A DNA stretch of 64,000 nucleotides from Massalongia carnosa (lineage: Eukaryota), in contig OZ287083.1 in the NCBI GenBank assembly GCA_965645245.1, positions 186,001-250,000 on the forward strand, in the 5' to 3' direction. Below are positions 3,706 through 16,510 of this stretch, piece after piece. Under the pieces are notes generated by a model. The model saw only the letters and a list, made by a program, of their open reading frames with translations, did not search any database and had not been told where the DNA came from. The stretch's first letter is position 1. Each line of letters begins with the position of its first letter. The position numbers were made by a program, and so were the translations under genes.

Positions 3706-6700
3706 ATGGCTTCCACTTCCCATCCACCGGCTTGGGAACTTCCCTCAACCCCATTTCCTCATAAAACCTTCATTCAGCATGTCACCAAGCATGAAGGCTC
3801 CATCGAAGACTTGCTGGCGCCGTTTAGCAGATTCGAAAGTAGACTCCGTGAGGGGTTTGCGGTTCACCCTCAGCACCCTGCCATCCAGGATCCCTGCGTC
3901 AATTTGATTCCCGTTTTTGGAGAGTCCAATGAGCCCCTCCGCATCCGAGCAAGACCGCTTGAGGATGATAGTGTGAACGGCGAGTACATCATGCCCTTGA
4001 AGCCCGAAGATAGGAGGGCCAGCGGAACCCTAGCCATGGTGGGGTCGTTGAAAGCCTTCAAACAGAACTTTAATATATTCTCAGAGTCATCATTGGTGGA
4101 TCTGGATTGGAGCAACGTGGTCGCTGCGGGCAGCAGTGTGGTCACGCCGTTGATTCCAGTTCCGACCAAGTATAATACCTCGAAGAAAGCCCTGAGGTAT
4201 GCATCCGTAGCCTTGAAGAGCGTTCATCTCGCTAGAACGATGCAATAGGGGATACTATCACCAAAAGCTTGCTCCTTCGAGTGACATTGACCTCTTCATA
4301 TGGGGTCTGGATGAAGCAGCGGCGACGGCGAAGATTAAGTACATCGAATCCAGCATCCGTGATGCCATACTCGACGAAGTAACTGTAGGTGAAGCTGCGC
4401 TCCCATGAAGCCTCCCGTGTTAATCCACGGCAAGACGATTCGGACCAAGAATGCGATCACAATCGTTAGTCGATATCCAACACGTCACGTTCAGATTGTC
4501 TTGAGGCTTTATAAATCCATCTCGGAGATCCTCACTGGCTTTGACGTTGATTGCTCGAGCTTTGCGTACGATGGTACCCAGGTGTACGGGACTCCAAGGG
4601 CAATCATGGCCTTTGTAACGCAAACCAACACCATCGACCTCACGCGTCGCTCTCCGAGTTACGAAAGCCGTTTGAGTAAGTATGCCCACCGTGGATTTGA
4701 AATCCATTGGCCAGACTTGGATCGCACAAAAATTGATCCTACAATCTTCGAGAGATCTTTTCCCCGTACCAATGGGTTGGCACGGTTGCTGGTTCTAGAA
4801 AGGCTCCCAAAACCAAATGATCGAGAAGCATATCTCATCCAACGACGAGAAGAAAGAGGAAGACCAAACCTGAATAGTTACCATCGTTTCAGCCATCAGC
4901 TGGTCGGGAATCTCAAAGATAATGACCCGGATGACGTTGCTGAATGGATTTATGAGGACGAGGTAGCAAATTACAATTCATTCACCATCCCATACGGTCC
5001 AAAGTATCATGCCAAGAGGATTGAGAAGTTATTGTATACCAAGGATCTTCTGTTGAATGCAGGTACGTGGTACAGCAGAGTATCTCAAAGTCATTAATGA
5101 CGTCGTTCTATTCTTTCTTTCTCTTCGTCTTCACCAACAGACAGCACGTCCCAACTATGCTCCGTCTTTGGACATACGATTTACGGTACAGAATGACTCG
5201 CCGCTCAGCTTCTCAAATAAGGATTTATTTGCATCTATACATGATTACCCGCTTATATCAATCACCGTTTACTCAATCACCCTGTCATATCATTACCTAT
5301 ACGCAATGCTTCATCAGAACGGCTTTACATCTAGCCTAGTCCTTTCAGAATAATCTAATATTCCTGATAATCCGTCGATCTTTGAAACACACTCTTTTGG
5401 GCCCTTTTGTCTGCCATGTGATTTTTTGGATTTTCCACTTTGGAATCCTTCAAGTTCAAAACTACACAGTCCTTTTTTTGATTAAAACCCGAATTTGATT
5501 CCACATGCTAATACTTTGCTAAATTATGGCTTGTGCTAGAATGGAATGCGAAAAAGGACAGAAAAGTCGCCTTGCATAGACATCCCTGTTTCATCGGAGA
5601 CGCAGAATCAGTTATACATGATTGCTGTGGATTCTGTCCCAAGCCCACGACTGAGGAAGAGCGCAAGATTGCAAAAGAAGAAAGTGGCATTTATGTATCC
5701 GGAGAACTGAGCTTTTTGAAGGATGACCCCGGTCGTCAAGCGATTGGATCTTTCAATCCGCTCACAAGCGACGACTGTACCGATATGGCTTATATTGGGG
5801 GAACAGGTGAACTATGTCGGAAGATTTGTCACGAGGACATAGATTATGTAAAAGATTGGTGTTTGAGAGAAGGTTCCAAAATTAACCGTCGCGATCATAC
5901 GGGGAGAACTCCTCTCCAGCTTGCCACACAATGTTCGACCCCTGAAATTGTGCAGTGTTTAATTGACAATGGTGCTCGTATTGTAGCTAGATTGGTGGAC
6001 GGCATGACTGCTCTACACATAGCGGCGACGCGTGGTAACAGTGAGATGGTACGATCGTTACTCGAGAAGTCCAACGCAAACGAGGCGGTGGAAGCCGAAA
6101 AAGAAGATCGGACGGAGGAGGCCCCAGGCCCAACAAGGCATGATGGCGATACTCAGAGGGACGATGTTTCAGAGACAGGTGGAGAAGGGACACATTCTGC
6201 CTCTGAGGATGAAGATATGGAGGACTTCGAAAGTGATGAGAGCGACGAGTCGACGACTTTGACCCAAGGCTCGCTTGTTAAAGTTAGGGCAACATCCGAC
6301 GGGGTGACCCTGCCAGATGATGAAGGTGAAAACGATCCGGATTTTTACGACGTCAACCTGGTTGCATGGGACACGCCCGTCTCTCCCTTACACCTGGCGG
6401 TATTGGGTGGCCATGTGGATGTCATTGAGCTACTGGTCAGTACATTTGGAGCCGATCCCCTTCTACCAGTTAAGCTGGTGGACTCTTATTCTCGAAATCC
6501 CAAAACTGCCATTCTGACATTGGTTTTGGCTGCAAAAGCAACTGACTCGGACCTCTTAAACGTTACCAAGACATTGCTTTCCTTGGGTGCTTCGTCTGCT
6601 CAGGCGGATATGAATAGAATTTCGGCTCTTCATTACATTATAGCCACCCGATGTATTCCGGCCTTGGAGGCTTGTTTCAGCTTAGATCAGCCAGCAGCCA

Positions 6701-9700
6701 AAGGGGCTTTGAATCATCTAATTGTATCAAATCTCAGCTACAACACCAAGACTCTCACTCCTCTAACCACCGCTATATCGACAGGAGATGAGTCTCTTGT
6801 GAACATGCTTTTAGTTCTTGGAGCAAAGCCTACTATCGAACTCGAAGACTTTGTATTATCCTATACAGCCGCGTTCGAACAACATGGGACCAAACTATGG
6901 GGAAACACCAATGACATAACTCGGAAGTACAAAGAGACCAGTGCCCAGCCTATTGTACTAGCTGTTGAGCATAATCTACCCAACGTTGTTTATAAGTTGT
7001 TGGAGCAAGGTGCGGACGTGAACACGATAACCCAATATAGCCACATAGTCGTTGCCTGTCATGAGAAAAATGAGCGCGACTACCGCAACTATGAAGGCAA
7101 CTCCCTGCTTGATCTCATCAACAAGAAGATTGAGGTTTTGCAAAAGAAGGCAGAAGATAGCCCTGGTTTACCAGAACCGGTAGACTTGGGTGATGATAAG
7201 AAATATCTTGGTGGTCTCGTCGAAGGGTCCTATGAGCATTGGCAAATTTCCAAGGAGCTTCAGGCTGCGAAAAACCACGCCCAAGAATGGCACCAAAAAA
7301 GAAGAGAGGCTATCCGCAAGCATGAAACCCGCAAAGGGCGGAAGGAGGAGTGCGAAGCTTGGAGCCTGCTAATAGGGAATTTTCAGACCTTGCGCCAGCA
7401 TGTAATAGAGGCTGGGGCTTTGAAATTCACCCAGATTTACCCGGATATTCCAATGCTGGAGGACACTAAGTCATTAAAGCGTATCGATGAGTCATTTGAG
7501 CCCAGAGGAGGCGTTCAACATAACCGATAAATCCCGTGAAAGCTACCTTCAGCTGTAAGTTTCTAACATTCTCTTCTTTCCCCCTATTAAGTCTATTCTT
7601 CGTCTCCTTATCACTAGCTATTACTAAGGAACTTGATGATAGATTCGAAGCAGCCTGGAATGGTGATGGAGATAAGATCAAAGAGTTGACCTTGGCTCCG
7701 TGGGGTCCTGAAGGGAAAAATTGTCCGTTACAGATCGCCGTGCCTGATACTAAGGGGTTCTCCCCTTTCACTCTTGCCGTCATTCGACAACATCTAGATG
7801 TGGCTGATTTAATTTTGACCATTGCTGATGCACAACATGTACGAACCGACGAAGAATCGCAGCGCCGCCAATACAGCATGGAGGGGTTCGAAGAAGACAG
7901 CGTTTCCAGTGAGGGGGAGCCGGTTAGCGAGGTGGACGACCTCAACATATCCTATCGACTGGTCAGTGAGATTTTTACGATTAATGATATTACAGCACTG
8001 CCTAAATCTGTTGCCAGTAAAGTTTCAGGTATGTCCCACTTCATGTGCAGATTCTGGAAATCAAACTAACTTTGAAATAGTCACCAGTCTGCTCTCCTGG
8101 CACGCAGAGACTTGGATGGCTCTTGATGAACCAGAGAAAGTTGCGGCAAACATGCTTGGCTATACTGTTACTGGTCCTTCGCCCCCCGCAAGCTCGAATC
8201 AAGACTCCAAGGTGGGTGTCTCAGCTCTAAAATTTGCAAGGTCTGATTGGTTGGTAGAGTCTCTTCACGCAATCACTGGGATTCAGGCACCAAAGAAACT
8301 CCCTCGTTCACTTTGCTCTAAAGCAGAAAAGCCTTGACCTGCTTCGGTTCTTGCTGCAATGCAGCAAGAAGGCCTCGAAACTCGCCCAAAAAGACGAGTC
8401 AAAAAGTCTGGCAGGATTCGACCGGTACCACTTTCAAATTGGCCTTAAACAAGGAAACATCCAAGCAATCACCAAGATGGTAAAGGGGGCCGGAGTTCAA
8501 CTGCCCATCAAGGCTTTCGTCAAGCATGCGGGCGTGAAAGAGGCCGAAAGGCCAAAGTACTACCCCGGCCTAAGTATTGGAGGAAAGAAAATGACCAAGT
8601 GGGCTCAAGAAAGGGACCATAGATACACTACTGATTTTGAGAACGAGAAGACTCCACCTCTTCTGCTAGCCGCGCACAGTGGCTGTCTGGCTACTACCGA
8701 GTGGTTTCTTAGCGATACACCTTCTCGTTTGTACAAGGAGTTTGGAGCTGACAGTAGCGAAGATCCACGGCTGAAGATTCTTGCCAAAGCTCCACAAAAA
8801 TATAGCCAAGCAGTTGATTCTTGGCTTCACCGGCGAAGTATGTCTTAATGCTCTCAAGAGGTGAATGTATAAACTGATCAGCTGGCAGGTAATTTGGCTT
8901 TGCATGCGGCTGTGCTCTCGAAGGCCAAGGATGATCAATCTCTCGAGGTTGTCAGGTACCTTATCGAAGCTATGCCCGAATCCATGGAGACCAAGTCGCA
9001 GACTGGGTACACCCCACTCAGTCTTGCTTTTCATCGAGGCAAAGTCGACGTCGCAAAAGTTTTGATCGCCGCGGGCGCAGATCAAACGATTCGTGACGAT
9101 CAAGGTCGAAACATTGTCCATCTCATCCTCTGCGATGCACTTGATCGGCAGGTCGCCACCGACTCGGCCAAGGTCCGATCTTTGCTGGATCTCATCGACA
9201 AGCGAGTATTGAAGAGCCTGTTCCTAGAACGCTGCCACGACAACCCCGGAAGCACGACCCCGCTGGCCCGCTGGCTGTGGCACAACAGCTCCGATATCTG
9301 GCGAGAAGCATGGCACACTCACAAAAATGTGAACCGTCGATCGCCCGAGGTCTTCCAAGTCATACTTGAATACGGCGGCGGCCACGACCTGTATATGATG
9401 GACGGTAGCGGGCAATTCCCCCTCCATCAGGCCGTCAAAACAGGAACCCACCAAGTTATCGCCCTGATGCTCCAACACGACCCGAACCTACTATGGCGCG
9501 AAAACGCCACGGGCCAAACGCCCCTAGAACTGGCGGAGTCGCTGTATATTCGCCACCATACAGGCGGCAACCCAGACCTGAACCCCAAACACGACGTCGA
9601 CCGCGCTCCGACGGAATTAATCGCCGGCCGAGCACGCGTGTCTTGGGGCCCGGAGCCGGGCAAGGAGGGGGTGATGGAGACGTGGAGGGTCTGCAAGGAG

Positions 9701-9883
9701 AGCGCGGCCTCGCATCCGGGCCCACGCAAGCTCATTACCGTCACCGAGGCGCGGGAAGTGACGAAGCGCTTGGCAGACCGCAACCAAAGCGACGAGGCGG
9801 AAAAATCCAACGAGGATGAGGAAGATTCCTCGGAGATAGGGGAGTTTCAAGACGAGGTGGCCGACTGGTTAGAGTCTTATTGA
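3706..9883 (+). CDS. Large (~1,790 aa) ankyrin-repeat protein with an N-terminal nucleotidyltransferase-like domain; one apparent +1 frameshift near 7500
   Basis: Exons 3706-4196, 4249-4384, 4435-5062, 5540-7554, 7643-8028, 8081-8211, 8258-8837, 8889-9883 with GT-AG introns. Ankyrin motifs: GRTPLQLA, GMTALHIAA, SPLHLAVLGGH, GYTPLSLAF, GQFPLHQAV, GQTPLELA. The exons sum to 5362 nt (3n+1). Confidence 0.85.
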
Positions 9884-14003: not shown

Positions 14004-16510
14004 TTAACCCTCGTGTTTACCTTGCGACCCCACTTGCAACACACTAATGACTTAGCAGGTCTGCCACTACTCCGTATAGTTCGATGAATCTCTGATTAGC
14101 AAATCTGATTATTAAGCTGTATAGTCAGCCCGTGAACCCGAAGGGGCTTAGCTGGACACGTCTGAGGTGCTGAGGTCTTGTACAAGAGAAAGTATGCAAA
14201 TGGGGGTTGAATCGCGCCCGAATCCCATGGTTTTTTGGTACCGTCCATCTAGTCCCGAGCATCAGCGGCATGCTTTTTGATGATGCATATGCGGTCCATG
14301 TAGCACTCTGAGACTGTCGGACGCATCTAGTCCCGCTTTCTAGCTTTTTCATCGTCCCCCTTGAAGCAAAAGGAAAGCAAGAAACCATCTTGTCAGCTAT
14401 ATTGCCTAAAACAATGCGAATTGCATCTTTTGGCACCTCCTTCTGCTTCGGCGGCTGGATGAGATGCTGAGAAACGGCTGGGCTTCTCTACTCCGAGAGG
14501 AAGTACTTCGCACCTCAACCGGATCCTTCCAATTGATGCGCACACTCCTCCTTCGGAATGCTATCCTCTCCTCAGGCATAGGATCATCATCTGCGGGGCA
14601 GAAACATGCAAACCTTCTTAATGATGTATGATGGGGCTCTCTCGACTGGAAAGGGACGTCTCGTCCTTTGTTTCCTTGTTATTAGCATTTTATTCATACT
14701 AGTTCCACCATCAAGATTCCACCGTGTATCATACATCTCCTATTCTCACCTGAAACCTGGAATAGCTTCCAAGCATCATTATGCAGCCTTCTTCTTTAAC
14801 ATTCTTACTGTATATCGCCCACAGCCAGTACCCAGGCACAAAATGTTACATCGAGTAGTGAGGCTGTAGATTTAGCTTCTGCTACTCCAACGTTAAGCCT
14901 CGGGGATCCCAAGAACATTTTATCGCTTGATTCTATTTCCGAGGTCAGGATTCAAGCTGTTTCCTTCCTCTTTATTGCTCTATATCTTATCCACATGACA
15001 ATGCCGGCATTAGCGTCGTCCCACGGCTAAGGAACTAACCCGACGCATCTAGCAAGCATGCAGTAACGACAGCGCCGGCGCCGGCGCCGGTGCCTTTTGT
15101 TGACTACGGCTATCCCTTCGTCTGGCAATTTGGCAGCCATTTAGGTAATATTCAATTTTACACGCGCCGTCTCCGGGTAATGACTAATAACTTTAATCTG
15201 GCCAATCAGATTTTCCCTTTTCAACGATAATGGGTACAACACCTCAATCACCCCTCATGATCTATGTAAAATTTCCCAACATGCCTCCTTTTTGCAACAT
15301 GGTCCACAGCTCTTACATTGCCATCTGGTCTGACTTGCACCTCGTCTTTTGGTGCAATTTTCATCAATTTCCGCAAGTGGTCGGCGTCGTTTGAGTCTTG
15401 GCACTTGCCTTTTGCAGGCCAAACAATAGTCCTTCTTATTCAAATGCTCCCATTTGCAAGTTGACTCGACGTCTTTATTAACGTCTTGATTAGTAGTAAC
15501 TATGACATCTGTCGGACGTTTCCGTAGGGCACCGGCTTGATTGGATAGTAGGGCATTTACTATTTCTTTTTGAAAGTCCAAATGGCTGAGTGTTGAATTC
15601 GGATACAGAATTCTCCACAATTTGAAGGCAATTAGAACGGCTGCATCCAGAAGAAAGATGAAAATTGACCACCAGTAGTCACGATCAGATCTTTGAGGTG
15701 AATAATATGCTCTTTGCTGAGCATTCCCATCTGACCCGCCCATGTGCTGGTTATATTCCACGATGGGCATGGGAAATGGAAGCTTTTCTTCTTCATCACC
15801 AACGATGACTCTGGAATTTGCAGGAATTCCATGACGTCGACGGGAATTCTTGTAGAAAGAAGTCTTCAAATCCTCAATTGTATGAACCGTGGTCATGAAT
15901 TGCACGGTGTTTAAATCCACCCATGCCATACACAGAATGTCCCCGTCATCAATGTTTGATTTTTTACTTTTATTTGCAGGTACCGTCATTAATGCCTTCT
16001 TTCCCCAGTCCTTATTCTTGGTGGCTGCAACCCTCAGACGTAGAAGATCAACAGGAAAACCGCATCCTGATTTAGCCGTCCCACAGGCACCAATTCCAAT
16101 GGTTTCAGAGCTTTGAATAGCTTCGTATTTGTGAAGAAGTTGTCCAGAAAGATGACGTATTTCAAGCCTTCATCAGACGGTAAACTTCGAGCCAGTTGAA
16201 TGACGACTAGGGAGGAAGGAGACAAATCCCATTTGGTTGTCGGAAATTTCAATTGTCCAGGCGTTTTTAACTCACTAATTTTGGACACCTGTCTTGCAAT
16301 TAGTACGATGCAAATTGAGGCCTTTTCTACTCACCTTGAAGGTAAATAAGAAGTCAAAAAGATAATTTTCCTGACATAAACTATAGATTTTGAAGCCTAC
16401 CCCAGCCGCCTTGGTGGCTATTTGCATAGTATGGCAGCTCCTACCCCTGAATAAAATCAATTGCTCGTCAACTGACACATGACTTCCAGGAATCCAGTAT
16501 TTCTTTGATG
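14004..16510 (-). mobile_element. Truncated piggyBac-family DNA transposon
   Basis: Transposase remnant at 15255-16510. A candidate terminus TTAA-CCCTCGTG lies at 14004. No matching opposite TIR was found, so the left boundary is tentative. Confidence 0.6.
15255..16510 (-). pseudogene. piggyBac transposase (DDE_Tnp_1_7-type), N-terminally truncated and frameshifted
   Basis: YWIPGSHVSVDEQLILFRGR, GFKIYSLC, FLDNFFT, IGACGT, PIVEYNQHMGGSD, YWWSIFIFLLD and a C-terminal Cys-rich domain. Intron 16289-16334; frameshift near 16100. Confidence 0.88.

Follow-up and report, generated by a model that had tools for sequence, protein, structure and literature searches.

An ankyrin-repeat protein gene of Massalongia carnosa with a predicted nucleotidyltransferase module of the Gad2 family (PF26128) and an 8-bp deletion in the allele examined

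The window analysed here is a 64,000-nucleotide stretch of DNA from Massalongia carnosa (assembly GCA_965645245.1, contig OZ287083.1, positions 186,001 to 250,000 of the forward strand), and it carries at 3706-9883 a gene of eight exons whose product joins an N-terminal module of about 500 residues to a long ankyrin array. Sequence comparison with its homologues places this module in the Pfam family PF26128 (Gad2), and modelling shows a predicted nucleotidyltransferase (NTase) of the pol-beta superfamily whose head and helical neck are closest to those of class II CCA-adding enzymes and poly(A) polymerases. We consider it probable that the module is an active enzyme of the PF26128 type, moving a nucleoside monophosphate (NMP) to a hydroxyl acceptor, of which the 3' end of an RNA is the best candidate, with the ankyrins as a scaffold. 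The family as such is already known, as a curated Pfam family with many orthologues, and what is new here is an 8-bp deletion in the allele of the window. The features of the gene, in positions counted from the first letter of the window, are the following.

3706-9883, + strand: whole gene, 8 exons, stop codon at 9881-9883; notional read-through product of about 1,787-1,790 aa
3706-4196, + strand: exon 1, ATG at 3706; N-terminal helical region, first beta strand and hG[GS] motif
4114-4140, + strand: NVVAAGSSV, the G-S motif, in exon 1 (AAGSS is window aa 141-145)
4197-4248, + strand: intron 1, junctions read, GT..AG
4249-4384, + strand: exon 2; helix insert and putative metal-binding DxD motif
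4277-4309, + strand: SSDIDLFIWGL, in exon 2; the DxD is D176-I-D178, codons 4283-4291
4385-4434, + strand: intron 2, junctions read, GT..AG
4435-5062, + strand: exon 3; remainder of the NTase head and helical 'neck'
4486-4512, + strand: HVQIVLRLY, in exon 3
4537-4554, + strand: GFDVDC, in exon 3; F-D246-V-D248
4645-4698, + strand: RRSPSYESRLSKYAHRGF, in exon 3
5063-5539, + strand: intron 3, junctions read, GT..AG
5540-7554, + strand: exon 4, whose first part (5540-5835) is the end of the conserved N-terminal module, with a His/Cys cluster
5575-5586, + strand: HRHP, start of exon 4, His/Cys cluster
5617-5640, + strand: HDCCGFCP, start of exon 4, His/Cys cluster
5722-5760, + strand: DDPGRQAIGSFNP, start of exon 4
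5836-7554, + strand: remainder of exon 4, where the ankyrin blocks begin, including an acidic insert (Pfam Ank E 6.6e-26, Ank_2 E 1.7e-25)
7500-7530, + strand: frame break, 8 nt missing behind 7507 relative to contig X4 (introduced below); stop at 7528-7530, codon 1082
7555-7642, + strand: intron 4, junctions read, GT..AG
7643-8028, 8081-8211, 8258-8837 and 8889-9883, + strand: exons 5 to 8, divergent ankyrin region and acidic C-terminus

The gene model rests on several concordant observations. All seven introns are of the GT..AG type; intron 3 (GTACGT...CTAAT...TAG) is 477 nt long and the other six measure 46-88 nt. A tblastn search with the orthologue of Teloschistes (P0003) gave six collinear pieces running from 3706 to 9871 and, across the 64-kb window, no second locus beside 3706-9883, and the residues at the junctions agree with this orthologue (ALR/EYYHQ, EEVT/TVRTKNAIT and LLNA/EWNQ, the slash marking the splice). 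The spliced N-terminus reads through 522 aa without a stop and matches the family profile over positions 1-489 with an E of 5.3e-228, which excludes chance. The segments 3706-7507 (1,074 codons) and 7508-9883 (712 codons and the stop) are both free of internal stops. Ankyrin repeats begin at about 5836 and recur to the end of the gene, the read-through tail amounting to 1,287 aa with acidic runs, and a Pfam scan placed an Ank_2 match on 8873-9880 (E 2.4e-16); the middle part of P0003, a stretch without Pfam matches, resembles ankyrin clusters by language-model features. Exons 5 to 8 (7643-9883) are open and homologous, yet out of frame with exons 1 to 4 in the allele of the window. Pfam scans of the window exons and of the full-length proteins P0003 and P0035 returned ankyrin families only, with no NACHT/NB-ARC or other sensor domain. 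As to RNA features, intron 3 matched no Rfam family at E<=1 and its folding z-score of 0.22 indicates no excess structure; the only Rfam row between 3400 and 10200, sR32 at 9757-9818 (E 0.74), was taken as a chance match.

An earlier note on this stretch, drawn from the letters alone, had described an NTase-like enzyme fused to a large ankyrin array. The seven motifs that it quoted all lie where it had placed them, as a script mapped them to open reading frames (ORFs) of the + strand, and its splice model is right save for details: exon 4249-4384 is exact, and the DxD motif lies in it, inside an ORF of 63 aa. Likewise, an ankyrin array with acidic inserts does follow the N-terminal 500 residues or so, while the frame break at about 7507 had escaped notice.

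Membership of the N-terminal module in PF26128 emerges from the homologues. Exon 3 alone retrieves 1,435 of them at E<=1e-3, and the 120 listed, which are 71-81% identical and come from several ascomycete classes, carry PF26128.2 without exception (120/120) in precomputed annotation. In the protein atlas PF26128 bears the name 'Gad2', and the three nearest clusters (Ascomycota, Basidiomycota) have it on 96%, 85% and 96% of their proteins. The Pfam copy used for our own scans was without PF26128 and left a true Gad2 homologue (P0269) unmatched too, so that its silence on exons 1 and 3 and on the proteins P0008 and P0086 is uninformative; on exon 2 it gave a weak match to Polbeta (PF18765, E 0.043), below the cut-off.

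According to its preprint, the namesake of the family, Gad2 (Gabija anti-defence protein 2) of Bacillus phage SPbetaL7, has 400 aa, is toxic to bacteria that express it and contains an AlphaFold-predicted nucleotidyltransferase domain (10.1101/2023.05.01.538930). Using its annotated coding sequence (OQ921347.1, 109563-110765) as reference, 569 homologues were found, and 119 of the 120 listed carry PF26128.2. Profile comparison with hhalign aligned the fungal family to a 25-row Gad2 alignment with an E of 6.1e-4, and a 273-row profile of eukaryote and giant-virus proteins, five of them giant-virus sequences, to the Gad2 profile with a probability of 77% and an E of 2e-5 over 148 columns; against the single Gad2 sequence the result (E 0.24) was not significant. 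The pairings are AAGSS with AGGA(I/T), SDVDLF with NDVDIY, GFDVDC with TFDFTVC and RLSKY..RGFEV with RVQKY..KGY.I, and the paired residues G31, G32, D45, D47, D106, R151, K154 and Y155 are invariant in the Gad2 alignment. The phage protein families (PHROGs) give a concordant picture, with phrog_4400 (E 7.9e-27) and phrog_1614 'nucleotidyltransferase' (E 8.2e-6) for Gad2, 1614 (E 9e-5) and 4400 (E 0.065) for a fungal orthologue, 1614 for exon 3 of the window alone (E 0.0018), and 1614 and 4400 for a giant-virus relative (E 8.8e-7 and 2e-4, respectively). A tblastn search of P0008 against 50,697 phage records brought up one record at E 0.1, that is, nothing.

The likeness to Gad2 is confined to its first 170 residues or so, which pair with window residues ~124-310 and have the G-[GS], DxD, FD and R..KY..[RK]G[FY] motifs in common with them and, in the models, the same order of secondary-structure elements and the same structural neighbours. 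Equivalence over the full length was not found, since hhalign spans only Gad2 residues 12-171, after which the fungal protein continues with a helical region, the Cys cluster and the ankyrins. Gad2 is a stand-alone phage protein with another C-terminal half (~250-400) and lacks the ankyrins, the His/Cys cluster and the DDPGRQ motif, whereas the fungal module has a helical insert of about 20 residues and an N-terminal extension of about 110 aa; the branch that separates Gad2 from the fungal groups in the tree described below is very long (3.62), and the Gabija-blocking phenotype has no obvious meaning in a fungus. As a side observation, the C-terminal half of the Gad2 model (locus L010, 1064-2266; P0269, ~250-400) shows weak matches to the ADP-ribosyltransferase fold, without fungal counterpart: Arr (Z 4.8), TreX (4.8), DarT1 (4.4), pertussis toxin S1 (4.4) and diphtheria toxin (4.1), all within background and mutually consistent.

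Conservation was counted over 267 proteins aligned to the module profile, namely the 120 listed homologues of exon 3 and 147 from an exhaustive search; these are best matches only, down to about 40% identity, and are numbered here as in P0008, with n excluding gaps. The glycine of the G-S motif is kept in 215 of 218 (G143) and the following Ser or Gly in 217 of 219 (position 144). In the DxD pair, D177 is present in 235/238 and D179 in 241/241, and in FDxD, D247 in 257/257 and D249 in 250/257. The basic stretch that follows is no less constant, with R281 (259/263), R282 (258/263) and R296 (259/263), with S283, E287 and R289 in all 263, and with K292 and Y293 in 261 of 263 each. Conservation extends to the start of exon 4, where H432 (229/243), H434 (241/242), C448 and C449 (228/240 each) and C452 (223/238) form a cluster that could be a zinc site, and where the PGRQ..GSF columns are kept in at least 220 of 242 homologues. 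By script mapping, the window carries every one of the conserved residues tabulated. The G-S motif, D176xD178, F-D246-V-D248 and RRSPSYE-R-KY-RGF are putative metal- or nucleotide-binding residues, almost invariant in the family. Furthermore, about ten Arg or Lys residues of the module are invariant, which fits a polyanionic substrate.

For the fold, the orthologue P0008 was modelled with AlphaFold (AF2) from a 34-row alignment; it comprises 501 aa, the N-terminal module only, and is 79% identical to exon 3 of the window. The model (pLDDT 83.6, pTM 0.86) places G-S between strand 139-142 and helix 144-150 and the DxD on strand 178-183, its secondary structure follows the order of the alpha-beta-alpha-beta-alpha-beta core of pol-beta NTases, and the invariant Asp of FDVD (D246) comes just after helix 239-245. 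Structural neighbours were ranked with VIA-align against 48,161 chains, independently of Foldseek. The best match is the A-adding enzyme 3wfo (Z 9.6, rmsd 3.4, 172 residues aligned), and it is accompanied by E. coli poly(A) polymerase 3aql (Z 7.7), the CC-adding enzyme 4wby (7.2), the CCA head domain 2la3 (5.8), the CCA-adding enzymes 3h37 (7.6), 9kma (7.0), 1miv (6.0) and 1ou5 (5.0), and TENT5B (6.7). Eight of the top nine are class II NTases, and all nine with Z>=5 are NTases; CdnE and DncV (Z 3.4 each) and a cGAS-like receptor, cGLR (Z 2.8), come far below. Foldseek against the Protein Data Bank (PDB) returned no row at E<=1e-3 for the P0008 model; the rows listed are nearly all pol-beta NTases or fold relatives, led by TENT5C (7cqz, E 7.2e-3) and including CD-NTases, CCA-adding enzymes, TUTases, Cid1, OAS1 and the non-catalytic NF45/NF90 (ILF2/ILF3), with two rows outside the pol-beta fold, SpoT and a pre-ribosome chain. 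The rows of cGAS/OAS type stand at E 0.03-0.2, among them CdnE 6wt9 (E 0.031) and CdnC 6u7b (E 0.046). A second model, that of Gad2 (pLDDT 76.7), has the same order of elements as that of P0008 and finds the same class II enzymes: 4wby (Z 10.3), 3aql (9.5), 3wfo (8.9), 9kma (8.8), 1ou5 (8.8), 1miv (8.6) and 3h37 (8.3).

Among known systems, class II tRNA nucleotidyltransferases and the bacterial poly(A) polymerase are thus the best structural match for head and neck, and they share with the fungal module a motif A of the type G-[GS]...DxD; the fungal FD(V/F)(D/T) presumably sits where class II motif B lies. In contrast, class II enzymes lack the ankyrin fusion, and there is no match at the level of sequence. 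TENT5/FAM46 proteins, which provide the best Foldseek row, differ by weak scores, a large rmsd (13 A in Foldseek) and the lack of any sequence relation found, and the cGAS/OAS/CD-NTase group shares the superfamily with its G-S and DxD motifs at the low Z scores given above. The claim of a pol-beta NTase in the earlier note is hence borne out by the conserved G-[GS], DxD and FDxD motifs and by the orthologue model; the motifs on whose conservation that note had staked its reading are kept at 97-100% among the 267 homologues, the aspartates included. It had also foreseen the labelling, for public annotation gives the listed orthologues no name beyond 'ankyrin repeat protein' or 'hypothetical protein'. 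The word 'uncharacterised' that it used is apt for the biochemistry, but not for the domain, already filed in Pfam 38 as PF26128 'Gad2'.

The relatives that the earlier note had expected outside the fungi do exist, and the family occurs in giant viruses, in phages and in the amoeboid Fonticula. The viral model library BFVD yielded 62 matches to the fungal module at E<=1e-3, and giant viruses account for every one of the 50 listed. An ankyrin protein of Fadolivirus (A0A7D3QUG1, 1,496 aa) ranks first, aligned over the whole module with a Foldseek E of 4.6e-33 and a TMq of 0.70; others on the list are fused to BTB, VWFA, F-box or RING in place of ankyrins, and 13 giant-virus targets are common to the top-50 lists of the fungal and Gad2 models. 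Eight family loci were found in IMG/VR, and two loci on contigs of giant-virus metagenome bins (GVMAG), L002 and L004, are intronless ORFs of at least 1,491 aa. Their neighbours are small ORFs in tight array; they are 35-39% identical over residues 25-499, and their ankyrins start at about residue 504. The architecture of NTase and ankyrins is therefore shared with Fadolivirus, L002 and L004, although viral copies are intronless and often have BTB, F-box or VWFA instead of ankyrins. A further giant-virus member, L007 (2317-3960), carries a BTB domain with an E of 6.2e-4, just under the Pfam cut-off. For Pandoravirus, a preprint uses HHpred (PolyA_pol head, 95%) to assign the BTB-NTase proteins of its 'cluster 7' to class II NTases, notes that DFD replaces the RRD of motif B and that a third carboxylate is lacking, and proposes a role in tRNA maturation (10.1101/2023.12.02.569716). 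Pandoravirus BTB proteins other than the accession given in the preprint (A0A2U7UAG2) are among the BFVD matches.

The distribution and history of the fungal gene point to old, vertical descent. An exhaustive search of 1.84 billion representatives returned 5,005 proteins at E<=1e-3, 2,670 at <=1e-10 and 548 at <=1e-30, of which the best 150 were examined. The ten more distant representatives that were looked up include Gymnopilus (Basidiomycota), Borealophlyctis (a chytrid), two proteins from Fonticula alba (2,959 aa and 2,773 aa long) and a sequence from a Polykrikos transcriptome that is possibly contamination. The Gymnopilus dilepis protein P0153 (1,442 aa) contains two tandem NTase modules, 364-913 and 947-1416, through duplication or a fused gene model. 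A quick maximum-likelihood tree with SH-aLRT support only was built from 40 chosen rows (12 named eukaryote, 19 other representatives, 5 viral-contig, 3 Gad2-type and the window); the other proteins of the 267 were not included, and Gymnopilus was represented by the second of its two copies alone. With giant-virus and phage rows included, as the earlier note had suggested, the window falls inside the Ascomycota, adjoining Teloschistes (70% identity). The Ascomycota, the Basidiomycota row and six other representatives form a clade at support 100, which also holds the long-branched viral L007; the chytrid and Fonticula groups lie outside it, L002 and L004 form a deep branch of their own, and the Gad2 group hangs on the branch of length 3.62. 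The placement of three viral rows, whose branches are very long, is unreliable. The fungal gene looks old in Holomycota (Ascomycota, Basidiomycota, chytrid and Fonticula) and vertically inherited rather than recently acquired. Indeed, module identity of 71-81% across ascomycete classes, together with a tree that follows the fungal phylogeny, suggests a housekeeping-type orthologue and not a diversifying immune gene. The literature searched as full text, with subscription journals and bioRxiv supplements outside its scope, contained no paper tying the fungal proteins to Gad2 or giving them a function.

In the mechanism that we propose, the DxD pair would support two-metal-ion chemistry and transfer an NMP from a nucleoside triphosphate (NTP) to a hydroxyl acceptor. 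This acceptor would foremost be an RNA 3' end, extended or repaired without template as in the structural relatives, and the ankyrin array would be a scaffold for targeting or for binding partners, not a sensor of ligands. The RNA 3' end is tentatively ranked first among the possible acceptors because the nearest folds are template-independent RNA 3'-end enzymes, because some ten basic residues are invariant and because Gad2 is toxic; the toxicity in bacteria fits an active enzyme as well.

Several points weigh against this proposal. None of the family members has a known activity or substrate, and three 2026 reviews still call the mechanism of Gad2 unresolved. A protein substrate would be equally compatible with the ankyrin, BTB, F-box and VWFA fusions of the viral members. 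The model is that of orthologue P0008 and not of the window's own spliced protein, and its top Z of 9.6 only slightly exceeds the 7-8 that is common background where a model has no clear match. Sequence searches of the PDB detect no solved relative: phmmer with P0008 gave His-tag artefacts only (best E 0.036), the module profile was swamped by ankyrin matches, some of its rows carrying repeats, and the Gad2 profile had 0 matches at E<=10. Pfam PolyA_pol (PF01743) has no match at E<=1 on the window exons or at E<=10 on P0008, the module shows no recognisable class II motif B (RRD) or motif D (EDxxR), and tRNA-binding body or tail domains are not evident in the fungal protein. No conserved Asp or Glu stands on strands 209-236, where a third carboxylate is expected, in the P0008 model and the 267 homologues. 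The spacing between G-S and DxD is 33 residues in the fungal proteins, versus a canonical 9-13 and 13 in phage Gad2. Lastly, the allele in the window, being frame-broken and bearing rare residues at conserved columns, may not be fully functional here.

Some of these points can be accommodated. As the Z score lies near background, the fold call is not made on it alone, but on the uniformity of the matches, the positions of the motifs and the second model, that of Gad2. The wide spacing comes from an inserted helix (161-172 in the P0008 model), and we read it as an insertion, not as grounds for exclusion. With a class II fold and neither PolyA_pol match, RRD nor EDxxR, the module resembles class II enzymes in build without being a member.

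The allele itself calls for separate scrutiny. The window was compared with four public contigs: X1 and X3 (organism A), X5 (organism B, from another study) and X4 (a lichen metagenome), X1 being possibly the source of the window. X1, X3 and X5 are identical to the window across the 7507 site. X4 differs from the window by 64 substitutions in 6.2 kb (about 1% diverged) and has 8 extra letters behind 7507, which restore one frame and the sequence 'FEPRVSF', matching the 'FEPKVTF' of orthologues. Its only other indels, 1 nt each at 4413 and 5150 (at 5150 a 1-nt deletion in X4), fall in predicted introns 2 and 3 and thereby support the gene model. Homologues match frame 1 of the window up to '..SFEPR' and frame 2 from there to '..YLQL/FEAAW', and if the canonical intron 7555-7642 (GTAAGT..TACTAAG..TAG) is used, exon 4 must end in another frame than the one in which it starts. 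An assembly error was considered and set aside, since the X3 and X5 contigs, the latter from a second study, agree with the window at 7507: the allele carries an 8-bp exonic deletion and not an assembly slip. As read, the first stop comes at codon 1082 of a notional 1787, and the predicted truncated product would comprise 1,081 aa, that is, the intact enzyme module and the first ankyrin blocks. An alternative intron at 7481-7617 (GTATCG..TAG), which on paper gives an in-frame product of 1,770 aa, may bypass the deletion.

The copy in the window, as distinct from the family, may well be a young pseudogene or truncated allele of this lineage from which no full-length protein is made, a reading that we hold only slightly less probable than its opposite. 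Runs from two studies (X1/X3 and X5) share the deletion relative to X4, and it is the window, not X4, that holds the rare residue at four conserved columns. The module differs from that of X4 at eight amino acids, and the window has Cys where 232 of 239 homologues have Trp and 0 Cys, Asn for His (7 versus 171 of 254), Ile for Val (12 versus 129 of 223) and Met for Thr (1 versus 29 of 259). Forty of the 64 differences from X4 were shown and 31 of those examined; 8 are intronic and 23 exonic, in 22 codons, 16 nonsynonymous and 6 synonymous, and these few data hint at relaxed constraint on the copy of this lineage. On the other side stand the catalytic motifs, all intact in this copy, the 712 codons still open downstream of the break, the in-frame alternative intron, and the share of differences examined, only 31 of 64. 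Retention of intron 4 would bring an immediate stop ('..YLQL*'), a TAA overlapping the GTAAGT donor, and the orthologues P0001, P0032, P0033, P0041, P0066 and P0101 end at 1,041-1,084 aa, which suggests gene models split at intron 4 or a real short isoform.

For the family, the alternative that survives best, though we think it unlikely, is that the module nucleotidylates a protein or a small molecule, by AMPylation or UMPylation as in GlnE and GlnD or in the manner of antibiotic NTases, the ankyrins recruiting a protein substrate. Such a role would suit the family's repeated fusion to modules of protein interaction, which in giant viruses are ankyrin, BTB, F-box, VWFA and RING (BTB in L007), as well as the want of an evident RNA-binding body or tail domain and the presence of lincosamide and aminoglycoside NTases among the structural matches: LinB (Z 3.8), LnuA (3.4) and ANT(2'') (3.2), the last reaching Z 6.0 with Gad2. 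RNA 3'-end enzymes nevertheless lead the structural neighbours clearly. Ankyrin, BTB and F-box are moreover the commonest expanded families of giant viruses in general, so that these fusions may say little about the substrate.

That the module is a non-catalytic pseudoenzyme or scaffold, binding only nucleotide or nucleic acid, is improbable. The absence of an evident third carboxylate, the missing motifs B and D and the 20-residue insert between G-S and DxD would fit such a protein, yet the DxD (235/238 and 241/241) and the FD (257/257) are kept, the same residues are invariant in phage Gad2, and conservation of this kind in metal ligands is unusual in pseudoenzymes. Class II enzymes, furthermore, work with two carboxylates, according to the Pandoravirus preprint, which cites Hou et al. 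2005 (10.1101/2023.12.02.569716).

Weakest is the sensor reading of the earlier note, an ankyrin-gated immune or signalling NTase making a nucleotide second messenger as cGAS, OAS or CD-NTases do, which we judge very improbable: the superfamily is right, CD-NTases appear among the weak Foldseek rows and Gad2 acts in phage-bacterium conflict, but class II folds are far nearer (Z 9.6-5.0 versus 2.8-3.4 for CdnE, DncV and cGLR), no sensor or NOD domain was found in the Pfam scans, the pattern is that of a conserved orthologue whose tree follows the species, and Gad2 counteracts defence instead of providing it.

Two neighbouring features of the window deserve mention. Upstream, at 173-1899 on the - strand, lies a gene with a DUF3419 domain (E 9.1e-99) beside a SAM-methyltransferase domain (E 3e-09), a pairing that we take to be that of betaine-lipid (DGTS) synthases. 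At 15255-16169, also on the - strand, an ORF of 304 aa matches the C-terminal part of a DDE_Tnp_1_7 (piggyBac-type) transposase (E 3.3e-10) and is probably a transposon remnant.

The window in itself adds one more orthologue and the smaller practical point of an allele broken downstream of the enzyme module. Of wider bearing is that a protein of hundreds of fungal genomes, labelled only 'ankyrin repeat protein', carries a predicted and apparently active NTase of the Gad2 family. Genetically tractable fungi may therefore offer a route to the substrate of a family that also has many members in giant viruses. A bolder idea, to which we give only a small chance, is that the ankyrin-tethered enzyme of fungi and Fonticula represents, in cells, what Gad2 is in phages and the BTB, F-box and ankyrin NTases are in giant viruses, all acting on a common nucleic-acid end in repair or in host-virus conflict. 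If this were true, with tRNA or other RNA 3' ends or DNA ends as the common target, the fungal substrate would reveal how Gad2 disarms Gabija, and an anti-defence enzyme family would prove common to phages, giant viruses and eukaryotic cells.

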